From an uncultured Bdellovibrionales bacterium (GTDB taxonomy: Bacteria; Patescibacteriota; Minisyncoccia; Moranbacterales; UBA1568): DNA of 64,000 bases. The notes under the pieces are model-generated. The model worked only from the letters and a program-made list of their open reading frames with translations, searched no databases and was not told the origin of the DNA. Of this stretch, positions 2,154 through 43,259 are shown one piece after another (within the stretch, counting starts at the first letter, position 1; each line of letters opens with the position of its first letter). A program made the translations under genes and the position numbers. The stretch covers positions 4,520 to 68,519 of the forward strand of contig CAYUIR010000001.1 of the NCBI GenBank assembly GCA_964444815.1, written 5' to 3'.

Positions 2154-2156
2154 ACT

Positions 2157-2867: not shown

Positions 2868-2905
2868 CGGACGATAGGAAAGACTAAGACGGTAACGCTT
2901 CTGAT

Positions 2906-3871: not shown

Positions 3872-3878
3872 AACCACT

Positions 3879-11994: not shown

Positions 11995-12102
11995 AGTACC
12001 TCCAGTATACCGTAAAAGCGCTTCTTGTTCCATCTCCATATACTTGGTTTGCCAAGGGAAACTCGTCGGGCTACAATAGAGGAAATTGCTTATATTCCCA
12101 AG

Positions 12103-14590: not shown

Positions 14591-15487
14591 ATGACAGATA
14601 TGAGGAGGCCGAGAACTCTCGGCTCAGTAGCGTTTGATGGCGCTTATGGCAATCGCGCGCCCTCGATTCTCGTGGCAGCGGTAAAGCCTGAGCGCGAGGA
14701 AGGCACGTGGAGGATCGAGATTGGAAGCGACGCGCTCTGTGCGACGAATGTCGATGCACTCGATCACTTGACGCGGAGTGTCATGCTTCGCAATACGATG
14801 GGTCAAGAAGCATTTGGACTCTATGGTTTTGCCCATCTGGCCCTTTCCCTCAACTTCACCGATCAGCCGAGACCGCTTCTGGTCGTGATCGAGCGTTCGT
14901 GGGGAACGGCAGCGTATCCACGGCATCTTTCGCTTCCGTACGGGACTGCGGAGGGCATCGAGGAGCTGCTTGACCCTTGGCTCATCGCCAACCGCAGCTT
15001 CGGGCAGCAAATCGCCATTGGCATTGGCTCGGAGGGATATCTCCGGATGGGGAATGACCAGGATCATGCAGCCGAGGCGATAAGCCGTCTCAATCTCACG
15101 CCGGTTCGGCACGGTGTACGCTGGCAGACACCCGTTGCGGCTACGGACGCGCTCATCGCCTGCGTGACCGATAGTGTGGGACACAGGACGAGGATGAAAC
15201 GCCATACGTGCCTGATTCATCCGGACACGTCGAGCGCTCGCATCGAACTAGTGTATCTCCGAGCGATCGAATTCCCGGGTACGCTCGAAAAATGTCAGTT
15301 GCGGGATACGAACGTCGCCGTGGAGACGAATTGTCCAGTCCATCTCATCGACTATGACGGCAGAGTCGTCGCGTCGTTCGAGAACGGGAAACGCGTAGCG
15401 ACGAACTTTCCTTTGCTCGTGAAGCCCGACCTGGCCCATACACTGATGTATCTGCGCCAACACCATCAAGCGGCCGTGCCGGTGTAG
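14591..15487 (+). CDS. hypothetical protein (orphan, GC-rich, ~58% GC)
   Basis: 298 aa ORF with its own RBS, promoter and upstream terminator. No domain recognised. An antisense 198 aa ORF (14624-15220) was judged the less likely reading. Confidence 0.45.
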   Translation: MTDMRRPRTLGSVAFDGAYGNRAPSILVAAVKPEREEGTWRIEIGSDALCATNVDALDHLTRSVMLRNTMGQEAFGLYGFAHLALSLNFTDQPRPLLVVIERSWGTAAYPRHLSLPYGTAEGIEELLDPWLIANRSFGQQIAIGIGSEGYLRMGNDQDHAAEAISRLNLTPVRHGVRWQTPVAATDALIACVTDSVGHRTRMKRHTCLIHPDTSSARIELVYLRAIEFPGTLEKCQLRDTNVAVETNCPVHLIDYDGRVVASFENGKRVATNFPLLVKPDLAHTLMYLRQHHQAAVPV

Positions 15488-19493: not shown

Positions 19494-20681
19494 GTGAATT
19501 TGATAAAAAGAATTATCCGCGAGCTTCGTAAAAATAGTCTTCCTGATTTTGTATGGAAGACTCTTTTTTATACTCTTGGCAAAGGACGACATCTGTGGGC
19601 TTTGGATAAAAATTCTTGGCAGAAGAAAAAAGCAGAGAATTTTTTTGGACACTACACGCTTCCACAGCGATCTGGAAAGGAGCAGGTCATCGTTTTTATT
19701 TTGCCCGGGCTGTGGATTGCTGGGGGCATTGCTGTGATTTTGCAGCATGCCAATCTTCTCAGGAATCGCGGGTATCAAGTGAAGATTGTGACACAAGATC
19801 TCAAGACGAAAGTAGCGTGGTTTGAGAATCAGCGAGTGGAGATAGTACCCATCAGTGCCATCGAGCTCTTGCTAAAACAGGGTATAGACATACTGATTGC
19901 TACTGGGTGGAATTCTGTCCCAACGGTAGATCTATTGCCTGCACGACGCAAGATGTATTTTGTTCAGTTGGATGAAAGGCGCTTTTACCAAGATCAAACA
20001 CTACAGAGCTTCGTCGGAGAAACCTATCGAGTAGGGTTTGAATTTTTGACCATGGCGCATTTTCTCCAAGCATGGCTTCGGGAAGAATTTGATCAAGCGT
20101 CTACTTATGTACCCAACGGTTTGGACGTGGCAGTGTTTCATCCTGTAGTGGTACGACAGACAAAAACGAATAAAGTACGGGTGCTGATTGAGGGTCCAAT
20201 CAATATACCGTTTAAGGGCGTAGCAGAAGCATATGAGGCAGTTGCTGGTCTTGATTGTGAACTATGGCTGGTCAGCAGTAACGGTGTGCCGCCAGCTCAT
20301 TGGAAATACGATCAATTTTTTGAGAGAACCCCGATTCATGAAATGCCCCAAATCTACTCTTCATGTGATATTTTGCTCAAGATGAGCACGGTTGAGAGTT
20401 TTTGCTATCCGCCACTGGAAATGATGGCCTGTGGTGGAGTGCCCGTGATTCTTGAGGTGTCAGGTATCGAAGAGTACGCCAGGCACGAAGAAAACTGTCT
20501 CATCGTGCAGAGTCAACAAGAAGCACGACAGACTGTAGCTCGATTAATTAGCGATCCAGCGCTTCGTGCTCGGTTGCGGCGAGGTGGATTAGAGACTGCC
20601 AAAAAGTGGAGCTGGGAGCGTTCTGTCGATGCTCTAGAACAAGTGATACTCAGGGCTGATTCTCAGCAGGCTTATTTGTGA
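19494..20681 (+). CDS. glycosyltransferase (GT-B fold, GT1/GT4-like), GTG start
   Basis: 395 aa. C-terminal ESFCYPPLEMMACGGVPVI motif. About 40% GC. Confidence 0.7.
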   Translation: MNLIKRIIRELRKNSLPDFVWKTLFYTLGKGRHLWALDKNSWQKKKAENFFGHYTLPQRSGKEQVIVFILPGLWIAGGIAVILQHANLLRNRGYQVKIVTQDLKTKVAWFENQRVEIVPISAIELLLKQGIDILIATGWNSVPTVDLLPARRKMYFVQLDERRFYQDQTLQSFVGETYRVGFEFLTMAHFLQAWLREEFDQASTYVPNGLDVAVFHPVVVRQTKTNKVRVLIEGPINIPFKGVAEAYEAVAGLDCELWLVSSNGVPPAHWKYDQFFERTPIHEMPQIYSSCDILLKMSTVESFCYPPLEMMACGGVPVILEVSGIEEYARHEENCLIVQSQQEARQTVARLISDPALRARLRRGGLETAKKWSWERSVDALEQVILRADSQQAYL

Positions 20682-21384
20682 ACACGAGGTAGTAGGCGAG
20701 AGTGGCGCTGCCAATGACAAGGATTGAAAAGAGCGTAATGATAGACCAACCTTGGAGAAGGACTGGTTTGTATTGTGAGAGACGATCAACGAGGCGAGAG
20801 AGGTCGCCCGAGAGTGATCCACTGGTATAGGCAGGGCGCAGGAATAAAGTTTGACCTGGATAGACTTTGTTCTTGCTGGTGTCTATCAGAGTACGATCGG
20901 CAAAAACGGGATCAGGCACATCAGTAGCTGAGAGGTAGGGTTTTTCACCCTTGCGATTTTCGTCGGAAAAATAGGTAGCAGAAAAGCAGTATTTTTTATT
21001 CGTAGATTCGACAATAGCCGGAAAGGATAATACCGTGTATGTCCCTTGCATAGGTGGCTTATGGCTATAGATATCGGACGCAAGTGTATTTTGACAAGCT
21101 TCATCCAGGAGGCGGAATTCAATGTGTTCGCCGAGCTTGATGTCAGAACGTCCCAGCACGACCCGGATCTGATGGAGGTTTGACTCTTTGGCGATAAATG
21201 TCTGCGTGACGGGAGATCCTGGCGAAAGGGTTATTTTTTTTGTTTTCCCTAAGAAATTGTAGCCGGATTCGCCGAGACCAAAACTTGTGAGAAAGGTCAA
21301 AAAAATACCAATCATGCCGAGCAAAAAAATAGAGAAAAGAATTCCTTTATGGTATTTTTTAATGAGTTCAATATTTTTATTCAT
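20650..21384 (-). CDS. hypothetical bitopic membrane protein
   Basis: 244 aa with N- and C-terminal hydrophobic helices. Converges on the upstream GT with a 32 nt overlap. Confidence 0.45.
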   Translation of the reverse strand: MNKNIELIKKYHKGILFSIFLLGMIGIFLTFLTSFGLGESGYNFLGKTKKITLSPGSPVTQTFIAKESNLHQIRVVLGRSDIKLGEHIEFRLLDEACQNTLASDIYSHKPPMQGTYTVLSFPAIVESTNKKYCFSATYFSDENRKGEKPYLSATDVPDPVFADRTLIDTSKNKVYPGQTLFLRPAYTSGSLSGDLSRLVDRLSQYKPVLLQGWSIITLFSILVIGSATLAYYLVFTNKPAENQP

Positions 21385-21390
21385 ACGGCC

Positions 21391-22836
21391 CTAGAGATAG
21401 TAACGAGGGATAATGACGTTCATGATAGCGTGAATCTGGAGGAGTATCATGGCGAGGGTGAGGGCTTTCAGCGCAAAAAGAAAATACTTTTCCTGTCGTA
21501 GGAGGAATCCAATACCGGCAGCAATAATGATGAGATGAGCAATGACATTTGGAAGGAAGTAACGACCAGGCTGGCCGATAAGAATTTGGCCAGTGTAGTC
21601 AAACACGCGCCAGTCATAGAAGCGAATGGCTATTTGGAGAGCAATTATCATACCGAGAAAGAATACGAGAAACCTCTTTTCGGGAAGATACGTGAATTTT
21701 CTCTGAGAAAAGAGATACCAAACGGTCCCAATGAAACCGACAATTGTGATGAGGATAATTACTGAAAGTGTCCAGTCTGGTATTGCATTATCGAGCCAGC
21801 CGAAGTGCCCCCAATAAGACCGCGCGGTATCTCGCAGTTCGCCCGAACTGAGTGTCTTATCTAGGTATTTTCCTATGGACTCAATGGTGGAGCTGAATTT
21901 TGATTGCGCTGTGAGGTTAGTAATATTCACAAAATAGCTTTTTGGAATAATCAGAAATGTAGCGCTAGCAAGGAAGATACTTGCGCCTGCAAGAAGCGTA
22001 AGAAATTTTTTGAGAGGTAAATGGAGTGCTCTATAAGAAGTCCACGCCAAGAGAGGATAGAGCATTGCGACGAGTACGACGCCTGGACCTTTGGAAAAGA
22101 GACCAAGTATAGCGGCTGAGATGAGCAGAAGGGCGTGGCTCCACGTTAGTCCATCTCGCAGTAAGGAAACGCCAGCGAATAGAAAAAGCGAAAATGCAAA
22201 AACGAGCGCAATGTCGATATTGACTTGGGCTGCAGTCATGGCAAACATGGGCTGGAATGCCACGAGTATCGTAAAAAGGAGGCCTACAAAAGGTGAAAAT
22301 CCGGCCCTTCTTGCAATGTGGAAAGCAAGATAAACTACTCCAACACCAAAGATAGTTGCAAGTGTTCGCATCGAAAAGAGACGAGCGAATATGCTTTCAC
22401 TACTCAAAAGACGCTCTAACCAGGAGCTCAGGAGGTAATAGATTGACCGAGTGCCAGAGACATTCGTGGAGGTGGTGTCAATGTATTGTTTCCAGTCATT
22501 TTCTACAAGAGCTTGGTCAGAGAGGATGGTAGTGAAATCTGGAATATTCTGATCCGAGGTTCTTACCTCATCAAACTGATTGGCTTCCGCTGATCGAATC
22601 ACTTCTTCGGAGAAGCCATATGTTGAGATGCTCGAATGAGTGGTGGATGTACTCGGTAGATTGCGGAAAGGCCAATTTTTGTCTTGAGGTTCGGCCCAGT
22701 ATTGAGCGGTGCTGTAATGAGTTTGTTCATCAGGATTTTGAAACAAGGGAAACAGGACGGCCAAAAAAACACCCTTGAGAAGAAAGAGAAGGAGTATCCC
22801 AGTGAGGTAGAGAGCGTATTTTGAGGATGTGAACAT
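21391..22836 (-). CDS. polytopic membrane protein, GT-C-like glycosyltransferase candidate
   Basis: 481 aa with about 11 TM helices. A first extracytoplasmic loop with PDEQTHY (DE motif) follows TM1. Confidence 0.5.
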   Translation of the reverse strand: MFTSSKYALYLTGILLLFLLKGVFLAVLFPLFQNPDEQTHYSTAQYWAEPQDKNWPFRNLPSTSTTHSSISTYGFSEEVIRSAEANQFDEVRTSDQNIPDFTTILSDQALVENDWKQYIDTTSTNVSGTRSIYYLLSSWLERLLSSESIFARLFSMRTLATIFGVGVVYLAFHIARRAGFSPFVGLLFTILVAFQPMFAMTAAQVNIDIALVFAFSLFLFAGVSLLRDGLTWSHALLLISAAILGLFSKGPGVVLVAMLYPLLAWTSYRALHLPLKKFLTLLAGASIFLASATFLIIPKSYFVNITNLTAQSKFSSTIESIGKYLDKTLSSGELRDTARSYWGHFGWLDNAIPDWTLSVIILITIVGFIGTVWYLFSQRKFTYLPEKRFLVFFLGMIIALQIAIRFYDWRVFDYTGQILIGQPGRYFLPNVIAHLIIIAAGIGFLLRQEKYFLFALKALTLAMILLQIHAIMNVIIPRYYL

Positions 22837-22897: not shown

Positions 22898-24637
22898 ATG
22901 GAGCGGACCGTACAAAATATTTTGGTAGGTGGTTCGGGGTTTATCGGCTCTGAGCTTGCTCTGGAATTGGCGCGTAGAGGAGAGAGTGTCGTCAGTATTT
23001 CTCGAAACGGTGGAGTCGTCATACCTGGTGTCAAAAACATAATTCTAGATATATCGGAGCAGCGGGCGCTTGAACAAAAGTTTCCCACTGGGGAGACTGT
23101 CTATATTCTGGTTGGCCAAAATCACCCGGAATTCGATGCGGAAGCGGAACTGGAGGCTTTACGAAGACTGATCGTTGTGCTGAATGTGAAACGTCCCAAA
23201 AAAGTACTCTATCTATCTTCGGTGCTGGTGTATGGAGAGACCGATGCTCCAGCAGGCGAAGAAACCCCGTGTTGTCCAGCGGATCAGTATAGTCAGTTTA
23301 AGTGTTCTGCCGAGGCACTGTTACGAGAGAGTTTGAGCCCGCAGATAGTCCTTGGTATTTTACGTCTGGCAAATGTTTATGGCGGGAAGAAAAATCGAGG
23401 ATTCATCGGACTGGTTATGGATCGCTTGGCTCAAGAGCAAAGTATTGAGCTGAAAGTCAATGGTGACGGGCTACAAGAGCGAGACTATATGTTTATCGAC
23501 GATGTGGTGGCCGCACTACTATCGGTGAAAAAACATCTGATAGAGAATGATATTGTTAATATTGCGACAGGGCAGAGTCATACGCTGCTAGATATTCTCG
23601 ATCAAGTGTCACGTATAACTGGTCGTCAATTTCCATACAAGAATAATGGCAAAGGAGTGGTAGAAATTGGAAAGAGCAGGGTTAAAAATGAGAAACTGGG
23701 ACAGCGATACCACTTCTCGCCGAAGTATGGACTGAGCACAGGATTAGAGGAAACCTATTTGCGATCGGTGGTTTATCAGGAAAAGGTTTCTGGGAAGCGA
23801 ATGCTCTTTATCGGCGGGGAAGGATTCATAGGAAGAAACTTGGCCAGATATTTTGCGAATGAGAATGAGTGCATTTCGGTGGGTCAGCGCCAGTCTGTAT
23901 TTGCAGATCGGCGGGATAGGTATATCGAAGTTGATCCCTATAAGAATAGAGTCGAGGGTGAATATGACGTGGTGGTACATCTGATTGACAATAAAGTTCC
24001 TCTCTCGGTGTTCGAGCTCCAAGAGGAGCAATTGACAAAAAACTTCTCACTTCGATCAGGTGGGCAGTTGGTAGTATTTTCATCGGCAGTCGTGTATGTG
24101 AATCCAAATTCGGAGTATGGCAAGAGAAAGCAACTACTCGAGGCATTTTACAAACGATACTGCAAAGAGTACGGCATTACGCTCACGATTTTTCGCCCGT
24201 TTAATATATTTGGTCCCTTTCAGTTACCCAATCGCCAGGGGAGTTTGATAGCGAACTTGATGTGCAACTTTCTTCTGGATGAAAGTACTGAGATAAACGA
24301 CATGGGCGCTCGACGTGATTTTATGTGTGTGACTGATATTGCCAAGTTTGTCGAATGCGCTTTGGCGAGAAAGCAGGAAGGTGTTTTTGATATAGGATCA
24401 GGGACATTGGTATCTATCAGAGAGCTGATTGATTATTTGAATCACCATATCTTTTTTTCAAAGGGGAAAATCACGGATCGACAGGCAAAAGAACAAACTA
24501 ACGAACAGCCCGCCAAGAGGACTTTATCACCCGTACTTCCCATGGTAGACTTTGACGAGGGACTGAAAAGGACGTTTGCATTCTACAAAAATAACCTCCA
24601 TCTCCTCAAAGATTATGTCAAACGAAAGGGCAATTAA
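22898..24637 (+). CDS. tandem fusion of two NAD(P)-dependent epimerase/dehydratase (extended SDR) domains
   Basis: 579 aa. Two Rossmann motifs: GGSGFIGSELA at the N-terminus and GGEGFIGRNLA near residue 300, each followed by an SDR-like catalytic region. Confidence 0.7.
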   Translation: MERTVQNILVGGSGFIGSELALELARRGESVVSISRNGGVVIPGVKNIILDISEQRALEQKFPTGETVYILVGQNHPEFDAEAELEALRRLIVVLNVKRPKKVLYLSSVLVYGETDAPAGEETPCCPADQYSQFKCSAEALLRESLSPQIVLGILRLANVYGGKKNRGFIGLVMDRLAQEQSIELKVNGDGLQERDYMFIDDVVAALLSVKKHLIENDIVNIATGQSHTLLDILDQVSRITGRQFPYKNNGKGVVEIGKSRVKNEKLGQRYHFSPKYGLSTGLEETYLRSVVYQEKVSGKRMLFIGGEGFIGRNLARYFANENECISVGQRQSVFADRRDRYIEVDPYKNRVEGEYDVVVHLIDNKVPLSVFELQEEQLTKNFSLRSGGQLVVFSSAVVYVNPNSEYGKRKQLLEAFYKRYCKEYGITLTIFRPFNIFGPFQLPNRQGSLIANLMCNFLLDESTEINDMGARRDFMCVTDIAKFVECALARKQEGVFDIGSGTLVSIRELIDYLNHHIFFSKGKITDRQAKEQTNEQPAKRTLSPVLPMVDFDEGLKRTFAFYKNNLHLLKDYVKRKGN

Positions 24638-26044: not shown

Positions 26045-27319
26045 GTGTCTGAAATGTTAGAAAAACGGCCTTTACTCTCACGAATAAGTCAGTTAGTAGG
26101 ACTGGATATTCAATATTTCTTTGGAGCTGGAATAGTTGTTTCGTTCCGCTATATCATTGTATCTTTCTTGGGATTGGTGCTTTCGGTAGGATTTGCTCGT
26201 CTTGGTAGTAAGGAACTCTTCGGCCAATATCAGACCATACTTGCTTTGTTGAGTCTGATTTCTGTGTTTTCACTTCCTGGTTTGAATTTAGCTGCACTTA
26301 AGTCTGTAGTGGAGGGGAATACTACTGTCGTGCTACAAGCAGTGCGACTCAGTTTTTATGGGTCATTATTTGGGGTACCTGTAATATGGCTTTATGCGGG
26401 ATATAATTTCTTTCTGACACGAGATTTGACGTTTGCAGTTGCGGTTGCTATTGCTAGTATTCTCTTCCCATTTTATTACGCGTTCAATACCTGGTATGTT
26501 TTTTATGAGGGGCGCTCACAGTTTTTTCCTGTAGCGTGGCGAACAATCGGGCTTAATGCTTTGGTTACGACTATTCTTTTGGGAGCGTTGTATAGGCAAG
26601 AGAATCTTACTATACTGATACTGCTTTTTTTGGGGATTAACGTCGTTTTAAGTGGCAGATTTCTTTTTGAGGCGTCTCGTGCTGTAAGCGGGAGTTTTTT
26701 TCAGGGGACGAGTGGAGAACTCGATGTGAGGTATGGCCTCTCGGTTACCCTGCAAAAATTTGTTCTCTCTCTGGCAGAGAATGTTCCAGTGATACTCATC
26801 TCTTTCATGTTTGGGTTTGAGAAAGTGGCTATTTTTCAAATTGCTTTTTTCTTTGTGAGTGCCGTTTCTGGTTTTTTGAGTGGAATTTCCGCTACGTATA
26901 TGCCGCTCCTCTTTCGCTATAAGAAGCTCGCGTACGTTAAAGTGCTTTTGCAACAATTTACTTTGGGGCTAATTTTGTTTTTGATATTTCGTGTCTTTGT
27001 GGAGAAATTCTTTATAGCTTTTTATGGTGCATCGTATCAGGAAAGTCTTGAGATTGTTAGGAATCTCTCTTTTCTAGTGTTCCTTTTCCCACTCAAAACT
27101 TTCTTGATAAATTTCTTTACGGCAAAAAGACAAAACCTTCTTGTAGCGTCAATTTTTCTTTCTGCTAATCTATTGGCAGTATTCGCTCTGTACTGGACTC
27201 GAGAGGCGTCAGTAGGTACGAGTGCCACGGCGTATCTTTATACGTTAAATGTCCTTCTTAGCACCTCTTTACTAGTTACGTATTTGTACCAGGTGTACAG
27301 AGAGAAGAGGCTTATCTAA
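26045..27319 (+). CDS. Wzx-like oligosaccharide flippase (MOP superfamily)
   Basis: 424 aa with about 12 TM helices. About 40% GC. Confidence 0.65.
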   Translation: MSEMLEKRPLLSRISQLVGLDIQYFFGAGIVVSFRYIIVSFLGLVLSVGFARLGSKELFGQYQTILALLSLISVFSLPGLNLAALKSVVEGNTTVVLQAVRLSFYGSLFGVPVIWLYAGYNFFLTRDLTFAVAVAIASILFPFYYAFNTWYVFYEGRSQFFPVAWRTIGLNALVTTILLGALYRQENLTILILLFLGINVVLSGRFLFEASRAVSGSFFQGTSGELDVRYGLSVTLQKFVLSLAENVPVILISFMFGFEKVAIFQIAFFFVSAVSGFLSGISATYMPLLFRYKKLAYVKVLLQQFTLGLILFLIFRVFVEKFFIAFYGASYQESLEIVRNLSFLVFLFPLKTFLINFFTAKRQNLLVASIFLSANLLAVFALYWTREASVGTSATAYLYTLNVLLSTSLLVTYLYQVYREKRLI

Positions 27320-27396: not shown

Positions 27397-28326
27397 ATGA
27401 CTGATTTCGATGCTATTCCGTGTCCGCTGTGCGCCGCTTCGACCTACGATGTCGTTTACCCAGGGAAGTTTCCCGAAACACTTTCGCACGAATTTCTGAC
27501 AGAAGTCTATCGCTCATCGAGTGATCAGGCGCTTTTTGAGCAGGTAGTGAAGTGTCGGGAGTGTGGAGTAGTGTACCTCAATCCGCGCCTGCGCTCCGAT
27601 CTCATTGTGAGTTCATATGCCGATGGTGAAGACAGAACTTTTATCGAGCAAGACGCTTTTCGGATCAGAACATTTGCGGAGGCACTGAAGAAGCTGCGTG
27701 ATGAATATGGCCTTCTTTTTTCACCGGAGACCAAGACTCTTGATATCGGGTGTGCCGGTGGGGCGTTTTTGCGGGCTGCCAGAGAATGTCAGCTTTCCGC
27801 TATCGGTATCGAGCCAAGTCGCTTCCTCGGGAACTACGCACGGACCACACATAACCTCGATGTTCGGAGCGGTGTACTTGCTGATTTTTCTTTTCCGGCC
27901 CACAGTTTCGACCTGATCACGCTCTGGGATGTTATTGAACATGTGCCGGATCCCAAGGAAGAATTGAGAACGATTCAACAGCTTCTCAAGCCGGATGGTC
28001 TTTTTGTTGTCAACTATCCGGACTTCGGTAGCCTGCCAGCGAAGCTGCTTGGTCGGAAGTGGCCGTTTCTTCTGAGCGTCCATCTTGTGTACTATACGCC
28101 GGAAACTATCAGGCGCCAGCTTTTGAAAAGTGGTTTCCGGGTGATCGGTATGAAAAGACACTGGCAGACACTGGAACTCGGGTATGTGATCAAGAGAGCC
28201 TCGCAGTATTTTTCAGGATTTCGTTTTCTTGGTTTTTTGACTGAAAAACTCGGACTGGCGACACTACCGATTAAGTATTGGATTGGACAGACTCAGGTAA
28301 TTGCCAAGCGTTATGATACTCGATAG
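27397..28326 (+). CDS. class I SAM-dependent methyltransferase with N-terminal Cys4 zinc-ribbon (sugar C-/O-methyltransferase-like)
   Basis: CPLC...CREC zinc pairs, followed by LDIGCAGGAF motif I and LWDVIEHVPDP. Confidence 0.7.
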   Translation: MTDFDAIPCPLCAASTYDVVYPGKFPETLSHEFLTEVYRSSSDQALFEQVVKCRECGVVYLNPRLRSDLIVSSYADGEDRTFIEQDAFRIRTFAEALKKLRDEYGLLFSPETKTLDIGCAGGAFLRAARECQLSAIGIEPSRFLGNYARTTHNLDVRSGVLADFSFPAHSFDLITLWDVIEHVPDPKEELRTIQQLLKPDGLFVVNYPDFGSLPAKLLGRKWPFLLSVHLVYYTPETIRRQLLKSGFRVIGMKRHWQTLELGYVIKRASQYFSGFRFLGFLTEKLGLATLPIKYWIGQTQVIAKRYDTR

Positions 28327-28972
28327 GAAGAAAGTACAAGCAGTGATTTTCGACATGGATGGTGTGTTGTTTCTTTCGAATGGTTGTCATGAGCGGGCCT
28401 GGCGAGAAACGTTCCAGAGTATCGGGATCACGGACTTCTCGTATGCGGCTATTGCTGGGATGCGGACAGATGATGCTCTTGCCAGGGTGATTCTTGAGCA
28501 TGGCAAGCAGGTAGAAAATTATGATATCGAGGTGCTGACAGCGAAAAAGAGGCAATTGGCCTTACAGTTTCTTGAGGCAGAGAGTGAGGTGGCGCCAGAA
28601 AGTGCTACGCTTATCGCCTACCTCAGGAAAAAGTATCGTCTTGCCCTAGCCTCGTCCGCTTCGCCCAAAACGGTGGCGCTTTTTTTAAAAAAGAGTGGCT
28701 ATGCTGATGCATTTGAGGTGGTACTTGATGGTTCCTCGGTGGAGTACTCAAAGCCGGCTCCGGATATTTACCAGTTGGCACTGAGCAAACTCGGGCTTCG
28801 GGGAGAGTGCTGCGTGGTGGTTGAAGATTCCGGCAATGGAATCAGAGCGGCACAGGATGCTGGTATCCCAGTCATTGCTCTGTCCCAGATAGCCGAGGAA
28901 GTAGAAAAAATAAAATCTTTACAGCCGACAGTAATAGTAACGATGCTTTCTGAAATTCAAAAGATTTTATAG
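28301..28972 (+). CDS. HAD-IA hydrolase, beta-phosphoglucomutase-like
   Basis: FDMDGVL motif I, and a motif III/IV region VVVEDSGNGIRAAQDAGIPVIA. Confidence 0.8.
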   Translation: MPSVMILDRKKVQAVIFDMDGVLFLSNGCHERAWRETFQSIGITDFSYAAIAGMRTDDALARVILEHGKQVENYDIEVLTAKKRQLALQFLEAESEVAPESATLIAYLRKKYRLALASSASPKTVALFLKKSGYADAFEVVLDGSSVEYSKPAPDIYQLALSKLGLRGECCVVVEDSGNGIRAAQDAGIPVIALSQIAEEVEKIKSLQPTVIVTMLSEIQKIL

Positions 28973-28975
28973 TGT

Positions 28976-31786
28976 ATGAGAGAATATACTGAGGAAGATA
29001 TTGAGAAATATTTCTTTGATCAACCCAATCCTGATTTTTGGACGGTTATTATTCCGGCTGCTGGTAAGGGGACGCGTCTTGGTTACGACAAGCCGAAGAT
29101 CCTGTATCCGATTGCAGGACGGACGATTCTTGATCGAATGATTGATCTACTGGAGCCACGTTTCAGTCAATTTGTATTAGCACTTTCTCCGGTAGGGGCG
29201 CCCGATGTCATTCCGGAGCTCGAGAAAAGGATTCCTGGTCGTTTCGAAACGGTAACGCTTCAGTCGCGAGGCATGGCTGATTCTATTTATCAGGCTCTTC
29301 ACAAGGTGACTACGCCTTATGTTTTGATTATCTGGGGTGACCAAGTGGCAATCAGTGACCGTACCATCGTAGCAGTTCAGAAAATACTACAATTCACTCC
29401 GGGGGCCAAACTGGCGTTTCCAGTGGTGAAGCGTGAGCAGCCCTACGTGCATTATGAAGTGGACGAACATGGTTCCTTTACGCATGTGCTCGAGAGACGG
29501 GAGGGAGCGAATATGCCGCCACAGGGGAGGAGTGACTGTGGAGTGTTTGCATTCGAGACTCGTCGTCTGCGTGAGGTATATGATGATGAAGTTACGAAGG
29601 GCATCACCCTCAGTCGAGGAACAAAAGAGTGGAATTTTTTGCCGATGTTGCCACGCTTTGAAGCTGGTGGAACCAGTGTGAATGCATACCAGCTTGATGC
29701 GGTAGAAGAGACTATTGGTGTTAACGATGTCAGTGATGCTCTTATGTTGGAAAAACATTTTAACTTATCACAACGTCCTATGAAGGAACGACAAGAGAAA
29801 GTGAAGGTAGCGATGTTTTCGGGTGGGCGCGGGACGGGTGCTATCACGGATGCGCTGCTTCGCTATCCGGATATCGAGTTGACGTTGCTCGTCAATACGT
29901 ACGATGATGGTCTCTCAACGGGATTGCTCCGGCGATTTATCCCAGGAATGCTTGGTCCGTCGGATGTGCGGAAGAATATTTCTCGCTTTCTCCATCATAG
30001 AAAAGATCGAGCCTCACAGGCGCTCTTGTATCTTATCGAGTATCGCTTTCCTGACCCGTATGAAGCGACTGCGGCTCTGGCGCTCCTGCGTGCTTTCAGT
30101 GATTTGAAAAATACCGAATACGCGACCAACGAAATCCTGCAAGCCCGGGAGAATCTGTCTCTCAACCAGATCAAGGCGGCAGCCACGTACCTCGAGGCGT
30201 TTCTCGCATACTACCAAGCTCATCCCGAGAATCATAGCTGGTTCCCTTTTGGTGATGTCTCACTCGGTAATCTCTTGTTTGCAGGGTGTTACTTGGTAAA
30301 TGGCGAGGATTTCAACCGAGCTGTGGCGGACTTCTCTCATTTTGCTGAAATTGGTGACCGAGTGCTCAATCTTACCAATGGGGAAAATCGTGTCTTAGTT
30401 GCTATAAAAGAAAATGGACTATACCTTCATGACGAGGCAAGTGTGGTTGGCCCACAAGACACTTCTCGCATTGAAGAAATCTTTCTCCTCCCGCGTTATC
30501 TGGAGCCAGGAGAACTTGCTGATACGATGACGAAATCGGAAAAAATTGCCTATCTGAGGAGTGTCGAGGCGCTCCCGAGCTTAAGTGAAGCGGCGCGTCA
30601 GGCTCTTCTTGATGCTGACATCATCATTTACGGCCCGGGCACTCAGTACTCGTCACTCCTCCCTTCGTACCTGACACTTGGTGTAGCAGAGGCTATTGAG
30701 CGAAATGCTAAGGCTGAGAAGGTGTTCATTGCCAATATCGCTCGGGACTACGATATTTTGGGTGAGGACGCTACCACGCTCACACGTGCCTTTCTTTGGA
30801 ATATGAGTCGTAAGGGAGCTTATCCGGTGGTGTGTCAGAAGTTTATATCCCGGTTCTTTTTTCAGAAGCCGGAGGCTACATCGTCCGGTGAAACCCCGTA
30901 CGTCCCTTTCAATGCAGCTGAATTTGAGTATCCGCTCGATAAAGTGCGTTGGATTGACTGGGAGGGTGATAAGGGTAAGCATCTCGGAGCCAAAACGATT
31001 TCTGAACTTCTTATTCATGTTGAGGGCGAGATGGAGAAACGGGTGCACCATGTGGCACACCGGGTGTCTATTGTGGTGCCGGTTCTGAATGAAGTACGGA
31101 CGGTTGGTCAGGTACTGAAAAACCTGAAGGTGCTTGACCTCTCACAAATGAAACTTGATAAGGAGATTATCGTAGTAGATGGTGGCTCAACGGATGGGAC
31201 ACTCGACATATTGGCTCAAGAGTCAGATATTCGGGTGTATGAAACTACTGGGGGCCGCGGGAAGGCGCTCGGAACCGGTATTATCAAGGCTAAGGGCGAC
31301 ATCGTCGTTTTTTTCCCGTCAGACGGAGAGTACAATGAGGAGGATATTCTGCGGGTGGTCGCACCGCTCGTCAATCAGGAGTTCCCTGTTGTGCTGGGGA
31401 GCCGTGCGTTTCACACTCACGATTTGAACCGAACACTGAAGCGTGTGTACGGCAGTCATGGCATACTCTTTTATGTGAGCAAGTATGGTGGAATCGCTCT
31501 CTCTATTCTGATGCTGGTGATGTACCATCGCTTCATCAGTGATCCATTCACAACGCTCCGAGGATTTAACATGCGTGTATTTCGAGGTATGCGTTTCGAG
31601 AATACCGGAGCAGAGTTTGATATGGAGCTTATCGCAAAGATCATCCGTCGCGGTCATGTTATACTGGAAGTACCCGTGAGTTACAAAGCCAGAACCGTAG
31701 CAGAAGGAAAGAAGACAACTGTGTGGGACGGTCTCCGATATCTGTGGACGTTGTTGCGTTATTCCTTGTGGAAGCCGAAACAGTAA
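28976..31786 (+). CDS. three-domain fusion: MobA/IspD-like nucleotidyltransferase, CofD/YvcK-family domain, and GT2 (DPM1-like) glycosyltransferase
   Basis: 936 aa. The nucleotidyltransferase domain (aa ~22-250) has VIIPAAGKGTRLGYDKPK. The CofD/YvcK-like domain (aa ~276-620) has MFSGGRGTGAI...LLVNTYDDGLSTGLLRR...IIYGPGTQYSSLLPSYL. The GT2 domain (aa ~696-910) has SIVVPVLNE...VVDGGSTDGT...DGEY. Confidence 0.8.
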   Translation: MREYTEEDIEKYFFDQPNPDFWTVIIPAAGKGTRLGYDKPKILYPIAGRTILDRMIDLLEPRFSQFVLALSPVGAPDVIPELEKRIPGRFETVTLQSRGMADSIYQALHKVTTPYVLIIWGDQVAISDRTIVAVQKILQFTPGAKLAFPVVKREQPYVHYEVDEHGSFTHVLERREGANMPPQGRSDCGVFAFETRRLREVYDDEVTKGITLSRGTKEWNFLPMLPRFEAGGTSVNAYQLDAVEETIGVNDVSDALMLEKHFNLSQRPMKERQEKVKVAMFSGGRGTGAITDALLRYPDIELTLLVNTYDDGLSTGLLRRFIPGMLGPSDVRKNISRFLHHRKDRASQALLYLIEYRFPDPYEATAALALLRAFSDLKNTEYATNEILQARENLSLNQIKAAATYLEAFLAYYQAHPENHSWFPFGDVSLGNLLFAGCYLVNGEDFNRAVADFSHFAEIGDRVLNLTNGENRVLVAIKENGLYLHDEASVVGPQDTSRIEEIFLLPRYLEPGELADTMTKSEKIAYLRSVEALPSLSEAARQALLDADIIIYGPGTQYSSLLPSYLTLGVAEAIERNAKAEKVFIANIARDYDILGEDATTLTRAFLWNMSRKGAYPVVCQKFISRFFFQKPEATSSGETPYVPFNAAEFEYPLDKVRWIDWEGDKGKHLGAKTISELLIHVEGEMEKRVHHVAHRVSIVVPVLNEVRTVGQVLKNLKVLDLSQMKLDKEIIVVDGGSTDGTLDILAQESDIRVYETTGGRGKALGTGIIKAKGDIVVFFPSDGEYNEEDILRVVAPLVNQEFPVVLGSRAFHTHDLNRTLKRVYGSHGILFYVSKYGGIALSILMLVMYHRFISDPFTTLRGFNMRVFRGMRFENTGAEFDMELIAKIIRRGHVILEVPVSYKARTVAEGKKTTVWDGLRYLWTLLRYSLWKPKQ

Positions 31787-31796
31787 TTGTTGATAT

Positions 31797-32534
31797 ATGC
31801 CGAAAGTATCTATCGTCATTCCAGCTTATAATGAAGAGGCACTTATTGGGAAACTGCTTGAAGTGATTCTGGAAGTTGATATTCGGTCAATTGGTTTTGA
31901 GCGTGAGATTATTGTGGTGGATAATGGGTCACATGATAAAACCTCAGAAATCGTAGCTCGTTTTCCCGAGGTTCGTTTGCTTCGGATCGAGGTCAACAAG
32001 GGAAAGGGTGATGGCGTGCGCCATGGTATCGCTCATGCGACAGGAGATTATATCCTCATCCAGGATGCTGATCTCGAGTATGATCCCCATGATTATCTCG
32101 TACTGCTACAGCCGCTTTTGACAGCTAATAAGCCGATGTCTGTATATGGGAGTAGAATCTTAGGAGAAATGGAACGGGACAGTAGTTCTTTTTTTGGAAA
32201 GCACCCAGATAAATCGCTCCCTACTTTTATTGCAAATTTCCTCCTTTCTTTTTGGGCGTATTTTTTATTTGGTCAGTGGATTACTGACACTCTGACCGGT
32301 TACAAGATTTATCCTACCAAACTCCTGCAGGGCTTTACCATTCAAACGACTGGCTTCGAAACGGATCATGAGTTGACCGCAAAGCTCATTCGTTCAGGCG
32401 TTTCGATTGTTGAAGTGCCTGTGTCCTATACGCCCCGCACAGTTGAACAAGGCAAAAAAATTCGATACTCTGATTTCTTCATCGCTCTTTCCACATTTTT
32501 CAAATTTCGCTTCGTGTCAAAGCAGGCATTCTAA
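31797..32534 (+). CDS. GT2 polyprenyl-phosphate hexose synthase (GtrB/DPM1-like)
   Basis: VSIVIPAYNEE, VVDNGSHDKT and QDADLEY motifs. Confidence 0.85.
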   Translation: MPKVSIVIPAYNEEALIGKLLEVILEVDIRSIGFEREIIVVDNGSHDKTSEIVARFPEVRLLRIEVNKGKGDGVRHGIAHATGDYILIQDADLEYDPHDYLVLLQPLLTANKPMSVYGSRILGEMERDSSSFFGKHPDKSLPTFIANFLLSFWAYFLFGQWITDTLTGYKIYPTKLLQGFTIQTTGFETDHELTAKLIRSGVSIVEVPVSYTPRTVEQGKKIRYSDFFIALSTFFKFRFVSKQAF

Positions 32535-32545
32535 GACCTCAAAAA

Positions 32546-32953
32546 ATGCTCCGTATACTCCTGGGACGGTTTCCATTTTGGAAGCTGGTAAAATTTGTCA
32601 TCACCGGTGGGATCGCCTTGGGGATTGATGTGGTTTTGTACTACCTTCTTACTCGTTATGGACATGTCTACTATCTTTTGGCGCGGACACTTTCGCTGGG
32701 AGTAGCTATTATTTGGAGCTTTACGGTCAATCGTCAGTGGACCTTCCGTGCTATAGAGGGCGATACTCGTAAACAGGCAGTCAAGTTTATCACTGTGATA
32801 CTCGCCACCTCGCTTCTCAGTCTCGGGCTTATGCATGTGGGCGTGACGCTACTTCATTTTCATGACCTAGTAGTCATTTTGTTTGCTGCTGTCATTACAA
32901 CCCTTATCAACTTCACCGCCCACTCCTTGTGGAGCTACGCCAAAAAAGCATGA
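32546..32953 (+). CDS. GtrA-family small membrane protein
   Basis: 135 aa with 4 TM helices. FVITGGIALGIDVVLYYLL is typical of GtrA. Confidence 0.75.
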   Translation: MLRILLGRFPFWKLVKFVITGGIALGIDVVLYYLLTRYGHVYYLLARTLSLGVAIIWSFTVNRQWTFRAIEGDTRKQAVKFITVILATSLLSLGLMHVGVTLLHFHDLVVILFAAVITTLINFTAHSLWSYAKKA

Positions 32954-34596
32954 ATGATGTATTTAAGTGTTTTTCACTAAACTCCGTCTTTATTTTTTTA
33001 ATACTACTTCTTTTCGAAGTTAGTATTCACCCATTGGGCATGGGGCCGGATCGTCGGATTCATGACCCTGCTGTCTATCGGCTTGCTGATGCGAGCTATA
33101 TGCCTGCGGATTGGTATACCAACATGGCAGTTGAAAGTGGCGTCTATACGTTTTATGCTAAGCTCGTGAATGTATACCAGGTACTTTCGATATCTGAGGA
33201 GTTTTGGCGTATGGCGCTCTATCTCCTATCACTAGGAGTTTTGTATGTTGCCCTAATCAAGATTGCCCGACTTTTTTCTGAGAGTGTGCTCGTGGTGCCG
33301 ATTGTAGCGTTTTTTCATGCTATTGTGATCGTGGTGGCCCCACCTATCTGGCTCTATGGTCCGTTTATCCAGGTTGATGGTGGATTGGCACCACGTTCGA
33401 TCGGCATCGCGCTTTCTTTTCTCGCTCTGTATTTTCTATTGATGCAAGCGCGATATATGCCGTGGGTGCTCCTAGGCCTCGCTACCTTGGTGCATGTGTC
33501 CAACTCTCTCATTATTTTCACGCTCTATTTTGGGGCTTGGCTGCTCTTGGCACTTCTGAATCGGGACAGCATCACTCCATGGAGGACACATCTCAGTCTG
33601 CTGTTTCGCCAGGGGAGTACGGCGTTTCTCATCTACCTGCTTGCTGGTGGTTGGTTTGCTCTGTCTGTTTCTTTACGGAATACCGGAGTTTCGGATTTTC
33701 CAGACGCAAAATTCATCTGGACGTGGATCTATTTTCGGGCACCCTACATGGCACTGCCGCTCATGCCCTGGAAGGCCTGGCTCCTCTTTGGGCTCCATAT
33801 TGGCGCTCTCACGGTCTCTTGGTATCTGCTCAGGCAAAGGAGTGCCGAGACTGCCCGAAAGATGCTCGATCTCTTGGCTTTGATTGGGCTGGGAGCAGTC
33901 CTGTATTTCTTTGCTTTTTACGCCTTTGCCTTTATCTATCCCTGGCTGCCTGGGTTCCAGTTTTATTCGTTACGTGTTATTTACCTCATGCACTTTGTAG
34001 CCTATCTTTTTTCAGCCCTAGTACTTATTGTCTGGATGCGACGGTTTGGTATACATCGAACTTTGATAGTGTTCGGATGTTTGGTGCTTACCATGGTCTA
34101 CCTCTTCGCACCCATACAGAATCAGACCAAGAAGATGATTGGAAATCTGAAAACGAGCGTCAATTATCTCCTTCGTCAGCAAACATCATATACTCTGTCA
34201 CCAACGACGAGGGCGCTCTCAACTCTACAGGAGCCGTTCTTGGCACCACCGAATTGGTACGGCTCTCCACGGTATCTGCCGAGTGTGGTGAGTTATAAAA
34301 TGTTTGGGTTTACCCCAGCGGGCCTGAAAGAATGGTACGAGCGTATGAATGACGTGAGCGGGAGCGAGCTTGAACGCTCATATTTGGCACAAGAAGAAGT
34401 AGGTCGTTTTCAGCCAGTGACGCTTAGCTGGGGAGTGCTCTATACTCGCTTGACTACCGAAGAAATAATAACCCTCTCAAAGAAGTATCGCTTTACGCTG
34501 TTCCTAGCCTTACAGTCATCGGAGTATCCGTTTGAGGTGATAGCGGAGGACCCGGACTATCGGCTTTATCGGATTACGACTGGAGAGCCTCGTTAA
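32950..34596 (+). CDS. polytopic membrane protein, GtrC-like / GT-C candidate
   Basis: Start at MNDVFK (32950), overlapping the gtrA stop as ATGA. About 14 TM helices. Its position directly after GtrB and GtrA supports the call. Confidence 0.5.
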   Translation: MNDVFKCFSLNSVFIFLILLLFEVSIHPLGMGPDRRIHDPAVYRLADASYMPADWYTNMAVESGVYTFYAKLVNVYQVLSISEEFWRMALYLLSLGVLYVALIKIARLFSESVLVVPIVAFFHAIVIVVAPPIWLYGPFIQVDGGLAPRSIGIALSFLALYFLLMQARYMPWVLLGLATLVHVSNSLIIFTLYFGAWLLLALLNRDSITPWRTHLSLLFRQGSTAFLIYLLAGGWFALSVSLRNTGVSDFPDAKFIWTWIYFRAPYMALPLMPWKAWLLFGLHIGALTVSWYLLRQRSAETARKMLDLLALIGLGAVLYFFAFYAFAFIYPWLPGFQFYSLRVIYLMHFVAYLFSALVLIVWMRRFGIHRTLIVFGCLVLTMVYLFAPIQNQTKKMIGNLKTSVNYLLRQQTSYTLSPTTRALSTLQEPFLAPPNWYGSPRYLPSVVSYKMFGFTPAGLKEWYERMNDVSGSELERSYLAQEEVGRFQPVTLSWGVLYTRLTTEEIITLSKKYRFTLFLALQSSEYPFEVIAEDPDYRLYRITTGEPR

Positions 34597-41357: not shown

Positions 41358-43250
41358 TCATTCTTTGAAGAATTCTTCAAACCAGAGTTCGAGGGTGAGG
41401 AGTGCCCAGATATGAGGAGAAAAGTTGATGTCCGTGGAGGTGTGAGAGTGGAGAATATCCTCTATAGCATCACGTTTGAAAAGGTTCCGCTTCACGAGTT
41501 GGCCATCCAAGAGTTTCCCCGCGGCATAGTCTTTGAGTTCACCCCGAAACCAAGCGTCAATAGGGACGCCAAACCCCATCTTGGGTCGGAACATGACTTC
41601 ATCAGGGAGGATGCCACGGAGAGCCTCCTTCAGGATGTACTTCTTGTTATTCAGACCTTTGAGCTTGAGAGAGAAAGGGATTTGAGCCGAAAGTTCGAGG
41701 AGTTCATGGTCGAGAAATGGAGAGCGTCCTTCGAGAGCTACTGACATAGTAGCAATATCGACTTTTGTCAAAAGATCTTCGGGGAGATAGGTAGCAAAAT
41801 CAGCGTACACCGCTTGTTCTGTTCGATTGTTTGATCCTGATTCCAGGAAGCGAGAGGCGATGATGTCGTAGGTATCATGACCCGCTATTTTTTTCTTGAA
41901 CGTATCGGTATAGAGATTGTCTTTCTGCTCATTGGTGAAATAGGCTGTGTAGGAGAGATAGCGACGTCGATAGTCGTCCGAGAGACTCTGTGAAAACCGG
42001 TAGAGACGATCAAAAAAAGTATTTTTGACATATCGAGCCAAGAGTCGGGTGGCTGGTATGCCTACGAGGTGGTTGAGCCAGTCGAAGTGATCGAGTACTG
42101 TAGAAACCTGAAAGGCTGAATAGCGGGTGTAGCCAGCGAAGTTCTCGTCACCACCATCACCATTGAGAGCCACAGTCACATGATCTCTTGTGAGCTTGGA
42201 GACATAGTACGTGGGGAGGGCACTTGAGTCAGCAAAGGGCTCTTCATACTGACGAACAAGCATGGGGAGGAGCTCGACAGCATCGGGTTTGACGATGAAT
42301 TCAGTGTGATTGGTTTTGAATTTTTCTGCGATGATTTTGGCGTACTTGAGCTCATTGTATTTCTCTTCCTCGAAGCCAATAGAGAAGGTTTTAATAGGGG
42401 ATTTCGAATGTTTGGCCATCAAAGCCACGATGGCGCTCGAATCAATACCTCCGGAAAGAAACGCACCGATTGGAACATCGGAAATCATGCGGAGTCTGAC
42501 AGATTCGTCGAGTTTTTCGAGAATACGTTTCTTCCACTCTGATTCAGAAAGGCGGACCTTTTTTGAATAATCGAGTTTCCAGTAGCGTTCCTTTTTGACG
42601 GACTTGGTCTTGAGGTCGATAGTGAGAGAGTGGGCAGGCTCGAGTTTCTTGATACCTACGAACCCGGTGAGGGGCGCTGGAACGTACTGGAGGGTCAAAT
42701 AATGATGAATAGCGAGGTAATCAGGCTCTTTGTGGTATTCCGGCTGAGTCAGGATGGCCTTGAGCTCTGAGGCGAATAGAAAGACGTTGTCGTCGTGGTA
42801 GTACTTGAAAGGCTTTTTCCCGACACGGTCACGGGCACAGAAAAGTATTTGCTCTTGTTCGTCATAGATGGCAAAGGCAAACATGCCACGGAGATGATCG
42901 AGGCAATGTTCTCGGTATTTGTCGTAGAGTGCCAGGATGACCTCGGTATCGGAGTGTGAAGCAAATGTATAGCCATCCTGCTCGAGCATGGTTCGTTTCT
43001 CCTCAAAATTGTAGATTTCACCGTTGAATACAATCTCGTACCGGTCCAAATAACGCATAGGCTGATGACCGAGAGGGGAGAGGTCGATGATAGAGAGGCG
43101 CCGGTGACCCAGGCCAACTTTACTATCAGGCGAGATATAGACTCCGTCGTCATCGGGACCACGGTGCTTGATAGCATCATTCATCATCTCAATTTCTTGA
43201 GGTGAGACATTGTGATCTTTATAGGAAATTTTTCCAGCGATACCGCACAT
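41358..43250 (-). CDS. asnB: asparagine synthase (glutamine-hydrolysing)-family amidotransferase
   Basis: Start at MCGIAG (43250, the Cys2 nucleophile), with an Ntn glutaminase domain. The SGGIDSS PP-loop motif of the synthetase domain is present. Confidence 0.88.
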   Translation of the reverse strand: MCGIAGKISYKDHNVSPQEIEMMNDAIKHRGPDDDGVYISPDSKVGLGHRRLSIIDLSPLGHQPMRYLDRYEIVFNGEIYNFEEKRTMLEQDGYTFASHSDTEVILALYDKYREHCLDHLRGMFAFAIYDEQEQILFCARDRVGKKPFKYYHDDNVFLFASELKAILTQPEYHKEPDYLAIHHYLTLQYVPAPLTGFVGIKKLEPAHSLTIDLKTKSVKKERYWKLDYSKKVRLSESEWKKRILEKLDESVRLRMISDVPIGAFLSGGIDSSAIVALMAKHSKSPIKTFSIGFEEEKYNELKYAKIIAEKFKTNHTEFIVKPDAVELLPMLVRQYEEPFADSSALPTYYVSKLTRDHVTVALNGDGGDENFAGYTRYSAFQVSTVLDHFDWLNHLVGIPATRLLARYVKNTFFDRLYRFSQSLSDDYRRRYLSYTAYFTNEQKDNLYTDTFKKKIAGHDTYDIIASRFLESGSNNRTEQAVYADFATYLPEDLLTKVDIATMSVALEGRSPFLDHELLELSAQIPFSLKLKGLNNKKYILKEALRGILPDEVMFRPKMGFGVPIDAWFRGELKDYAAGKLLDGQLVKRNLFKRDAIEDILHSHTSTDINFSPHIWALLTLELWFEEFFKE

Positions 43251-43259
43251 AGATTGCAA

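Follow-up and report, generated by a model that had tools for sequence, protein, structure and literature searches.

A recurrent fusion of GlmU-type nucleotidyltransferase, YvcK/CofD-like and DPMS-like domains in a widespread, uncharacterised gene cassette with a probable role in surface glycans

A three-domain fusion and its gene cassette

The stretch of DNA analyzed here, 64,000 nucleotides of contig CAYUIR010000001.1 (assembly GCA_964444815.1) deposited under an uncultured Bdellovibrionales bacterium and referred to below as the window, carries at 28976–31786 an open reading frame (ORF) of 936 codons without interruption, as seen both in the ORF listing and in its translation. The product joins a nucleotidyltransferase (NT), a domain of the YvcK/CofD superfamily and a family 2 glycosyltransferase (GT2). 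A prediction made from the sequence alone (the original prediction) had already described this ORF as a fusion, and all the motifs that it quoted were found in the translation. The neighborhood was also as described there, i.e., a methyltransferase, a HAD-family enzyme, the fusion, a small GT2, a GtrA protein and a 555-aa membrane protein, all of them co-directional and tightly packed (Table 1). Three Pfam domains scored above their gathering thresholds in the 936-aa protein (NTP_transf_3 at residues 24–160, CofD at 278–590 and Glycos_transf_2 at 698–822), and an AlphaFold model built from a 73-sequence alignment contained, as anticipated, three confidently folded domains, with a mean predicted local distance difference test score (pLDDT) of 87. 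The sole stretch with pLDDT below 50 was the one formed by residues 267–272, between the first two domains.

The window protein belongs to a widespread, uncharacterised gene cassette. A database search with the fusion gave 877 related protein clusters; the three-domain form was present at 57–92% identity in 24 of them and at ~40% identity in a Bacteriovoracaceae-type group, while two-domain proteins of ~670 aa containing only the CofD-like and GT2 parts amounted to hundreds. An exhaustive search over 1.84 billion sequences (clustered at 50% identity) provided 306 representatives at E <= 1e-30, mostly 640–700 aa long, with a few of ~930–960 aa and one of 1148 aa, and relatives turned up in 508 genomes when one genome per species was scanned. 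The phyla represented were Patescibacteria, Acidobacteriota, Bdellovibrionota, Magnetococcales, Margulisiibacteriota, Elusimicrobiota, Dependentiae and Myxococcota, together with one archaeon. Source annotations of the family members were generic only, and a full-text literature search found no study of the fusion, the family or the cassette. The term “unprecedented” used in the original prediction is thus wrong, as the three-domain fusion is found in dozens of cases; the architecture is only uncharacterised. In the polysaccharide region of Mycoplasma fermentans PG18, of Clostridial origin, a CofD-family pseudogene and an NDP-nucleotidyltransferase have been described beside a GT2 synthase (PMC11658790). 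As here, CofD-family, NT and GT2 genes coincide in a polysaccharide locus, but there they are separate and the GT2 is of the processive synthase type.

In 80 genome loci we called the ORFs and identified them through BLASTP comparison with the window proteins. The core order was HAD – NT – [CofD-like+GT2] – small GT2, and the complete cassette (B12-radical SAM) – methyltransferase – HAD – NT – [YvcK/CofD-like+GT2] – small GT2. Among the 55 loci with enough flanking sequence, an NT was found in 98%, the small GT2 in 96%, the HAD in 89%, the methyltransferase in 55% and a class-B radical SAM protein in 20%. Culturable carriers include Bacteriovorax sp. BSW11_IV, Fluviispira multicolorata 33A1-SZDP and Bryobacterales F-183 (plasmid pF-183-2). 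A number of contigs labelled “uncultured Bdellovibrionales” (L009, L011, L014–L016, L018–L021, L028) have the gene content and gene order of loci labelled Patescibacteria/Moraniibacteriota and share their place in the tree; the taxonomy assigned to these metagenome-assembled genomes (MAGs) looks unreliable.

The CofD-like domain was fused to a GT2 in 80/80 loci, while the NT is a separate gene in most relatives. The complete NT+CofD+GT2 fusion was found in 13 loci plus the window, and other combinations also occurred: methyltransferase+HAD (2 loci), HAD+NT (10 loci, mostly Bryobacteraceae) and HAD+NT+CofD+GT2, a protein of 1149 aa in one Methanosarcinales MAG (L066 4405–7851, P0147). The latter unites more of the cassette than any other fusion and has a protein with 11 transmembrane segments encoded directly upstream. 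When the CofD+GT2 part was used to build a tree, the proteins fused to an NT came out scattered (polyphyletic), each sister to split forms, and in the split relatives the NT gene stops in another frame a few codons from the start of CofD-GT2. This polyphyly, together with the overlapping-gene junction, indicates that the window protein is a recurrent fusion of adjacent genes: the NT fusion joined two adjacent overlapping genes and arose or reverted repeatedly. The varied states of fusion, a Rosetta-stone type of situation, are in turn strong evidence that the HAD, NT, CofD-like and GT2 activities serve one pathway.

With NT and CofD-GT2 being separate overlapping genes in most relatives, a single indel introduced by sequencing or assembly might have joined them into a spurious long ORF. 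However, the identical 936-aa protein is found on contigs assembled independently from two sources, so the reading frame is not an assembly artifact, and the fused form recurs in 13 further species-level genomes and in the 24 clusters mentioned above, with a linker region that is conserved among the fused forms. We therefore consider the chance of an artifact, which the original prediction had raised as a concern, to be practically negligible.

Table 1. Features of the fusion, its cassette and the associated membrane proteins in the window.
Feature	Coordinates	Strand	Evidence
NT + YvcK/CofD-like + GT2 fusion ORF, 936 aa, complete	28976..31786	+	ORF translation, Pfam, AlphaFold, independent assemblies
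Domain 1, predicted GlmU-type sugar-1-phosphate nucleotidyltransferase, residues 1–266	28976..29773	+	Family profile against PDB, Foldseek, catalytic residues
Linker between domains 1 and 2, residues 267–272, gene-fusion site	29774..29791	+	pLDDT <50; gene junction of split relatives
Domain 2, distinct CofD/YvcK-superfamily subfamily, residues 273–690	29792..31045	+	Profile and structure comparison
Helical insert of domain 2, ~90 residues, approx. residues 335–425	29978..30250	+	Alignment gap against YvcK structures; helices in model
Domain 3, DPMS/ArnC/AglJ-like GT2, no transmembrane helices, residues 691–936	31046..31783	+	Pfam GT2 1.2e-21
Hydrophobic interface helix of the GT2, residues 830–848, ILFYVSKYGGIALSILMLV	31463..31519	+	Kyte-Doolittle
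Small GT2, 245 aa, core cassette partner	31797..32534	+	Paralogue of domain 3, canonical DAD motif
HAD-IA, beta-phosphoglucomutase subgroup, core partner; start probably 28313	28301..28972	+	Pfam HAD, profile
SAM methyltransferase, N-terminal 4-Cys motif, frequent partner	27397..28326	+	Pfam Methyltransf_23
GtrA-family small membrane protein	32546..32953	+	Pfam GtrA_DPMS_TM 1.3e-22
555-aa polytopic membrane protein, candidate GT-C-type transferase by position only	32929..34596	+	Hydrophobic segments
Wzx-type flippase directly upstream of the cassette	26045..27319	+	Pfam Polysacc_synt
PMT-family GT-C glycosyltransferase, possible second polyprenyl-phosphate-sugar user	21391..22836	-	Pfam PMT 1.1e-9

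Domains of the fusion and enzymatic partners

The profile of the NT family, searched against the PDB, matched the uridyltransferase domain of GlmU over its full length (E 5e-33, positions 22–267), with IspD, RmlA and inositol-phosphate cytidylyltransferase giving far weaker matches, and Foldseek with domain 1 found the structure 1g97 at 9e-16. Residues K41, G99 and D122, aligned with K25, G81 and D105 of GlmU, are invariant in the NT family, as are A29, G30 and R34, and the G-rich loop of GlmU is kept. N250, also invariant, is aligned with the GlmU Asn that we take to be the second metal ligand. The uracil-contacting Gln (equivalent to Q76 of GlmU) is kept in most of the family. These comparisons identify domain 1 as a predicted GlmU-type nucleotidyltransferase with an intact catalytic core; full-length homology, catalytic Lys and Asp, aligned Asn and G-rich loop are shared with the N-terminal uridyltransferase of GlmU, although GlmU has a left-handed beta-helix acetyltransferase domain that the 936-aa protein lacks. 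The family-specific invariants W120, Q123, R175, E176, D187 and F191 sit in place of the GlcNAc-contacting residues, in a region where alignments to different GlmU structures conflict, and because of this replacement the substrate sugar is probably not GlcNAc-1-phosphate. We also considered a CofC-like NT and ruled it out by the same type of search, as no match to CofC appeared in Pfam, NCBIfam or the PDB profile search.

Domain 2 shares the CofD/YvcK fold (PF01933), with significant similarity in sequence and structure to solved members of the superfamily. The original prediction had placed it there, and both the Pfam CofD match and the match of its profile to YvcK in the PDB (6.5e-27) agree, while true CofD (3c3d) was matched only at E 0.63 and through the N-terminal loop alone; no NCBIfam match to the CofD equivalog was obtained. 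Some 47 residues are invariant across the family of the middle domain. Among them, the DD pair D310/D311 corresponds to D40/D41 of Listeria monocytogenes GlmR, which are predicted to be catalytic and whose mutation, in a triple mutant, gives an inactive protein, and N587 is aligned with N217 of Bacillus halodurans YvcK, which contacts the nucleotide. Taken together, this shows a strongly constrained domain of the YvcK/CofD fold that keeps the nucleotide and metal motifs of the superfamily.

The differences from the known members are, however, substantial. Compared to YvcK/GlmR (B. subtilis, L. monocytogenes and CuvA of M. tuberculosis), domain 2 falls far under the equivalog cut-off (82 bits against TIGR01826, with a cut-off of 196) and carries the helical insert, which YvcK structures lack: it appears as a gap in the alignments to 2hzb, 2o2z and 2ppv (profile positions ~92 to 157), and in the model it contains the helices 345–355, 364–375, 386–391 and 396–415. 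In the 80 loci domain 2 is always fused to a GT2, unlike YvcK/GlmR, and is found within a glycan cassette and not in the conserved three-gene operon of yvcK, which we take to be yvcJ-yvcK-whiA. Its family extends to phyla beyond Firmicutes and Actinobacteria. Compared to CofD/FbiA, the LPPG or EPPG:FO phospho-transferase of F420 biosynthesis, the profile match is only that at E 0.63, and the partner NT is GlmU-like and not CofC/FbiD. Six proteins of ~380–430 aa (P0155, P0156, P0160, P0164, P0174 and P0187) matched the whole CofD-like domain including the insert (E 1e-60 to 1e-68) and could be either gene fragments or members of the subfamily that exist on their own, with no GT2.

For domain 3 the best NCBIfam matches were AglJ and DolP-hexose transferase, the best structural matches in Foldseek were ArnC and DPMS, and phmmer matched the DPMS of Pyrococcus furiosus (PfDPMS, 5mlz) at 3.6e-8, in agreement with the DPM1-like GT2 of the original prediction. 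We mapped its residues by alignment to 5mlz and the roles published for that enzyme, in which D91 and Q93 are metal ligands, D89 contacts the sugar and is no metal ligand, R117 and S135 position the dolichyl phosphate (Dol-P) and R202 belongs to the A-loop (PMC5526996). The invariant D783 and E785 correspond to D91 and Q93, the invariant R810 to R117 and the invariant R906 to R202, and after manual realignment of the SKYGG/SKGA motifs S835-K836 probably correspond to S135-K136, S835 being nearly invariant. Residues 830–848 form the most hydrophobic 19-residue window of the whole protein (Kyte-Doolittle 1.83, with a family mean of 1.30) and are aligned near R131–K136 of PfDPMS, beside the residues that position the Dol-P phosphate. 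Judged by these residues, domain 3 is a DPMS-type GT2 with intact metal and acceptor-phosphate sites and a membrane-interface helix, and the transfer itself is a prediction.

The small GT2 is AglJ/DPMS-like and, aligned with domain 3 along its full length, shows 33% identity (E 9e-40); it has none of the transmembrane helices of GtrB. Like the polyprenyl-phosphate GT2s (DPMS, ArnC, GtrB, AglJ, PpgS, GacI/CsbB), both it and domain 3 contain the catalytic domain with its metal ligands, the interface helix and the residues positioning the Dol-P phosphate.

As to the other enzymes, the profile of the HAD family matched beta-phosphoglucomutase (beta-PGM), sugar-phosphate phosphatases and CbbY about equally in the PDB (1e-36 to 5e-31), with the catalytic DxD, Lys and ED invariant. 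The beta-PGM-like HAD that had been predicted beside the fusion is therefore present by Pfam and profile, though under the cut-offs of the NCBIfam beta-PGM equivalogs (TIGR01990, 105.9 against 189.4; TIGR02009, 119 against 153). The S-adenosylmethionine (SAM)-dependent methyltransferase has invariant C9, C12, C53 and C56 (alignment A6), which probably form a zinc ribbon, and its PDB matches include the nucleoside diphosphate (NDP)-sugar C-methyltransferases TcaB9 and TylC3, a hint that it may act on a nucleotide sugar. Outside Patescibacteria the cassette often opens with a class-B (B12-binding) radical SAM protein of ~500 aa (L003 4924–6441, L031 1865–3373 and similar), whose nearest named relatives are P-methyltransferases, BchE and HpnJ, all of them far under the cut-offs. 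A phosphonate pathway, brought to mind by the weak likeness to P-methyltransferases, was discarded on these scores, and no PEP-mutase-like family was found among the clustered neighbors.

Membrane proteins and the surrounding glycan locus

The GtrA family is associated with the flipping of lipid-linked sugars. Together with the 555-aa protein, the Wzx-type flippase, a CapD-like dehydratase and the PMT-family GT-C protein, GtrA accompanies the cassette in Patescibacteria-type loci only. In these loci GtrA is found at the same position as in the window, the flippase also keeps its place, and the PMT-family gene is conserved. The orthologues of the 555-aa protein have 8–10 hydrophobic segments; it matched no family in Pfam or NCBIfam but for a weak DUF6798 hit, and an iterative hidden Markov model search started from it, looking for a GT-C partner conserved across phyla, recovered Patescibacteria members only. 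In Acidobacteriota the cassettes are flanked by PMT_2 and YfhO-like proteins, and the adjacent polytopic proteins of other phyla mostly had no Pfam match. Only the enzymatic core of the cassette is universal across phyla.

This arrangement recalls the GtrA/GtrB/GT-C systems of glycan modification, to which the original prediction had referred as a GtrB/GtrA/GtrC module. GtrA is present and GtrA and GT-C-type genes adjoin the fusion, with a PMT-family GT-C nearby. However, the small GT2 lacks the transmembrane helices expected of GtrB, and the candidate GtrC is the unclassified 555-aa protein, proposed by position only and matching no recognizable family. Also in contrast with those systems, two GT2 paralogues are always paired here, and one of them has PSD in place of DAD and a covalently attached YvcK/CofD-like domain.

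The entire window forms a single large surface-glycan locus, with an initiating Bac_transf transferase (17611–19035), many GT4 and GT2 enzymes, five methyltransferases and two Wzx-type flippases. Three GT-C proteins of the PMT/PMT_2 families are encoded in it, the one of Table 1 and those at 52883–55162 (-) and 55246–57042 (+), and these, with the unclassified polytopic protein at 32929–34596 (+), suggest that the organism uses polyprenyl-phosphate-sugar donors heavily. The core of the locus (20000–48000) has a GC content of 0.44–0.48 against ~0.52 in the flanks and may be a variable or horizontally exchanged island. A second lineage-specific fusion is found in the same operon, a 579-aa ORF (22898–24637, +) with two tandem NAD-dependent epimerase/dehydratase domains, whose counterpart in several related loci consists of two genes of ~290–330 aa each. 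In 11 loci, one of them on a Bryobacterales plasmid, an AsnB-like glutamine amidotransferase (in the window at 41358–43259, -; in L088 at 1991–3877) lies near the cassette; it may amidate a uronic acid of the same glycan. A 244-aa protein (20650–21384, -) with no Pfam or NCBIfam match always lies beside the PMT-like gene in Patescibacteria-type loci. Further ORFs with no family match were those of 701 aa (44428–46533, -), 677 aa (10216–12249, -), 382 aa (9066–10214, -) and 298 aa (14591–15487, +), the one of 677 aa showing a weak match to the LA_3751/LA_3752 putative glycosyltransferase family. No tRNA genes were found in the window, which most likely comes from a genome of the Patescibacteria type.

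A possible pathway, its alternatives and what they would mean

The explanation that we favor sees a natural fusion acting within a conserved cassette. Through mutase activity, or by removing a phosphate from a sugar bisphosphate, the HAD would provide a hexose-1-phosphate, from which domain 1, with a nucleoside triphosphate that is probably UTP, would make an NDP-sugar that the methyltransferase of the cassette might modify. Domain 3, seated at the membrane by its interface helix, would move a sugar from an NDP-sugar to polyprenyl phosphate, and the small GT2 would either make a second lipid-linked sugar or pair with domain 3. Domain 2 would then pass a sugar-1-phosphate from the NDP-activated product to a hydroxyl group on the lipid-linked sugar, releasing a nucleoside monophosphate (NMP) and forming a phosphodiester. 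Finally, GtrA or Wzx would flip the lipid-linked product and the GT-C-type proteins would transfer it to the surface glycan, as the gene context suggests. We consider the general frame of NDP-sugar synthesis, transfer of a sugar to polyprenyl phosphate and decoration of a surface glycan to be rather likely; of the original prediction, too, the half in which an NDP-activated sugar is added to a lipid-linked glycan was the better supported. The six steps taken together, including the phosphodiester, are quite possible but fall a little short of probable, and the CofD-type transfer by domain 2 is the least certain of them, an idea proposed by analogy that may be correct but that we hold with clear doubt. 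CofD/FbiA gives a precedent for such chemistry, moving a phospho-group from NDP-X to an alcohol. We favor this step because it is, to our knowledge, the only transferase chemistry established in the superfamily, and because it would explain both the coupling of the NT to domain 2 and that of domain 2 to the GT2.

A number of observations weigh against this explanation. The middle domain is nearer to YvcK/GlmR than to CofD, and the activities on record for YvcK/GlmR are UDP-sugar binding, GlmS activation and uridyl transfer, which do not include the formation of phosphodiesters. Our literature search found no biochemical data on any member of the family. In domain 3 the first Asp of the DXD motif (D89 of PfDPMS) is a Pro, the fused GT2 having PSD for DAD. 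The clade of the window itself has a small deletion or shift at the base-specifying Gln of the NT, and the HAD matches mutases and phosphatases alike, so that neither name can be assigned to it. The predicted template modelling score (pTM) of the model, 0.61, leaves the relative placement of the domains uncertain. Outside Patescibacteria the membrane neighbors are not conserved and belong to no recognizable family, except for the PMT_2/YfhO-like ones, and the presence of a large polytopic protein nearby in 57/80 loci is a count without background control.

Within the same general frame, domain 2 could have a role like that of GlmR/YvcK, i.e., a UDP-sugar-binding sensor or scaffold that gates or supplies the fused GT2, or an accessory uridylyltransferase. 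YvcK is its closest relative by sequence and structure and binds UDP-Glc and UDP-GlcNAc, the GlmR of L. monocytogenes makes UDP-GlcNAc, N587 is aligned with a residue of nucleotide contact, and a GlmU-like NT with a possible hexose-phosphate mutase in the cassette amounts to the metabolic neighborhood of GlmR. However, a second uridylyltransferase would be redundant beside a dedicated GlmU-like NT, the ~47 invariant residues exceed what a sensor domain usually needs, and the score under the YvcK cut-off, the family-specific insert and the lack of a yvcK operon context all set domain 2 apart, so that we see this role, although it is the main alternative, as rather unlikely. The same CofD-type chemistry, with release of NMP, would also allow domain 2 to be a soluble, non-canonical initiating phosphoglycosyltransferase acting on polyprenyl phosphate or polyprenol, with the GT2s extending a glycan on lipid-diphosphate that Wzx would flip. 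The constant tether to a GT2 whose hydrophobic helix should keep contact with the membrane, the Wzx gene directly upstream in Patescibacteria loci and the two GT2s in series, suited to stepwise extension, are consistent with it. Yet both GT2s carry signatures of polyprenyl-monophosphate enzymes (R810, S835, R906 and the helix) and not those of enzymes with sugar acceptors, the window already has a canonical initiating transferase of the Bac_transf type, and the GtrA and GT-C partners point to single sugars linked through a monophosphate. We regard it as quite improbable.

The original prediction had also drawn an analogy with CofC and CofD, in which the NT and domain 2 would act in sequence on a phospho-acid (2-phospholactate, phosphoenolpyruvate or 3-phosphoglycerate); in a related version that we considered, the product could be a soluble glycosyl-phospho solute, with a GpgS-like GT2 and the HAD as final phosphatase. 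The analogy did not survive the profile comparisons, in which the NT goes with GlmU over its full length and domain 2 with YvcK, and nothing was found in support of a phospholactate or phosphoglycerate substrate, with neither the window nor any of the 80 loci related to it containing F420 genes (cofC/fbiD, cofE, cofG/H). Furthermore, the GT2s are nearer to DPMS/ArnC than to GpgS and have the membrane-interface helix, the HAD falls in the sugar-phosphate (beta-PGM/CbbY) subgroup and the cassette is embedded in surface-glycan loci that also encode flippases and GT-C enzymes. Both versions are in our opinion very improbable.

For two decades it has been disputed whether YvcK/GlmR is a UDP-sugar sensor, an activator of GlmS or an accessory uridyltransferase. 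Here a sister family of YvcK is fused to a polyprenyl-phosphate glycosyltransferase and linked to a GlmU-like NT and a beta-PGM-like HAD, and this fusion and these gene links indicate NDP-sugars and lipid-linked sugars as substrates of the YvcK/CofD fold. It is conceivable, if doubtful, that domain 2 founds a new class of soluble, GT2-tethered phosphotransferases present in hundreds of species, which would place a sugar-1-phosphate, or some other X-phosphate, from an NDP-activated donor onto a polyprenyl-phosphate-linked sugar. If so, there would be phosphodiester-bridged decorations on surface glycans, and an ancestral catalytic activity of the YvcK/GlmR branch would be revealed; if the middle domain is instead regulatory, it would be an example of UDP-sugar sensing hard-wired to a glycosyltransferase. 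The cassette is found in ~500 species, among them abundant soil Acidobacteriota and Patescibacteria, for which surface glycans are probably important in their episymbiotic life. Knowing its product would allow the annotation of a recurrent and so far unexplained block of surface-glycan loci, and a new way of making phosphodiester-linked or methylated sugar decorations might come to light.

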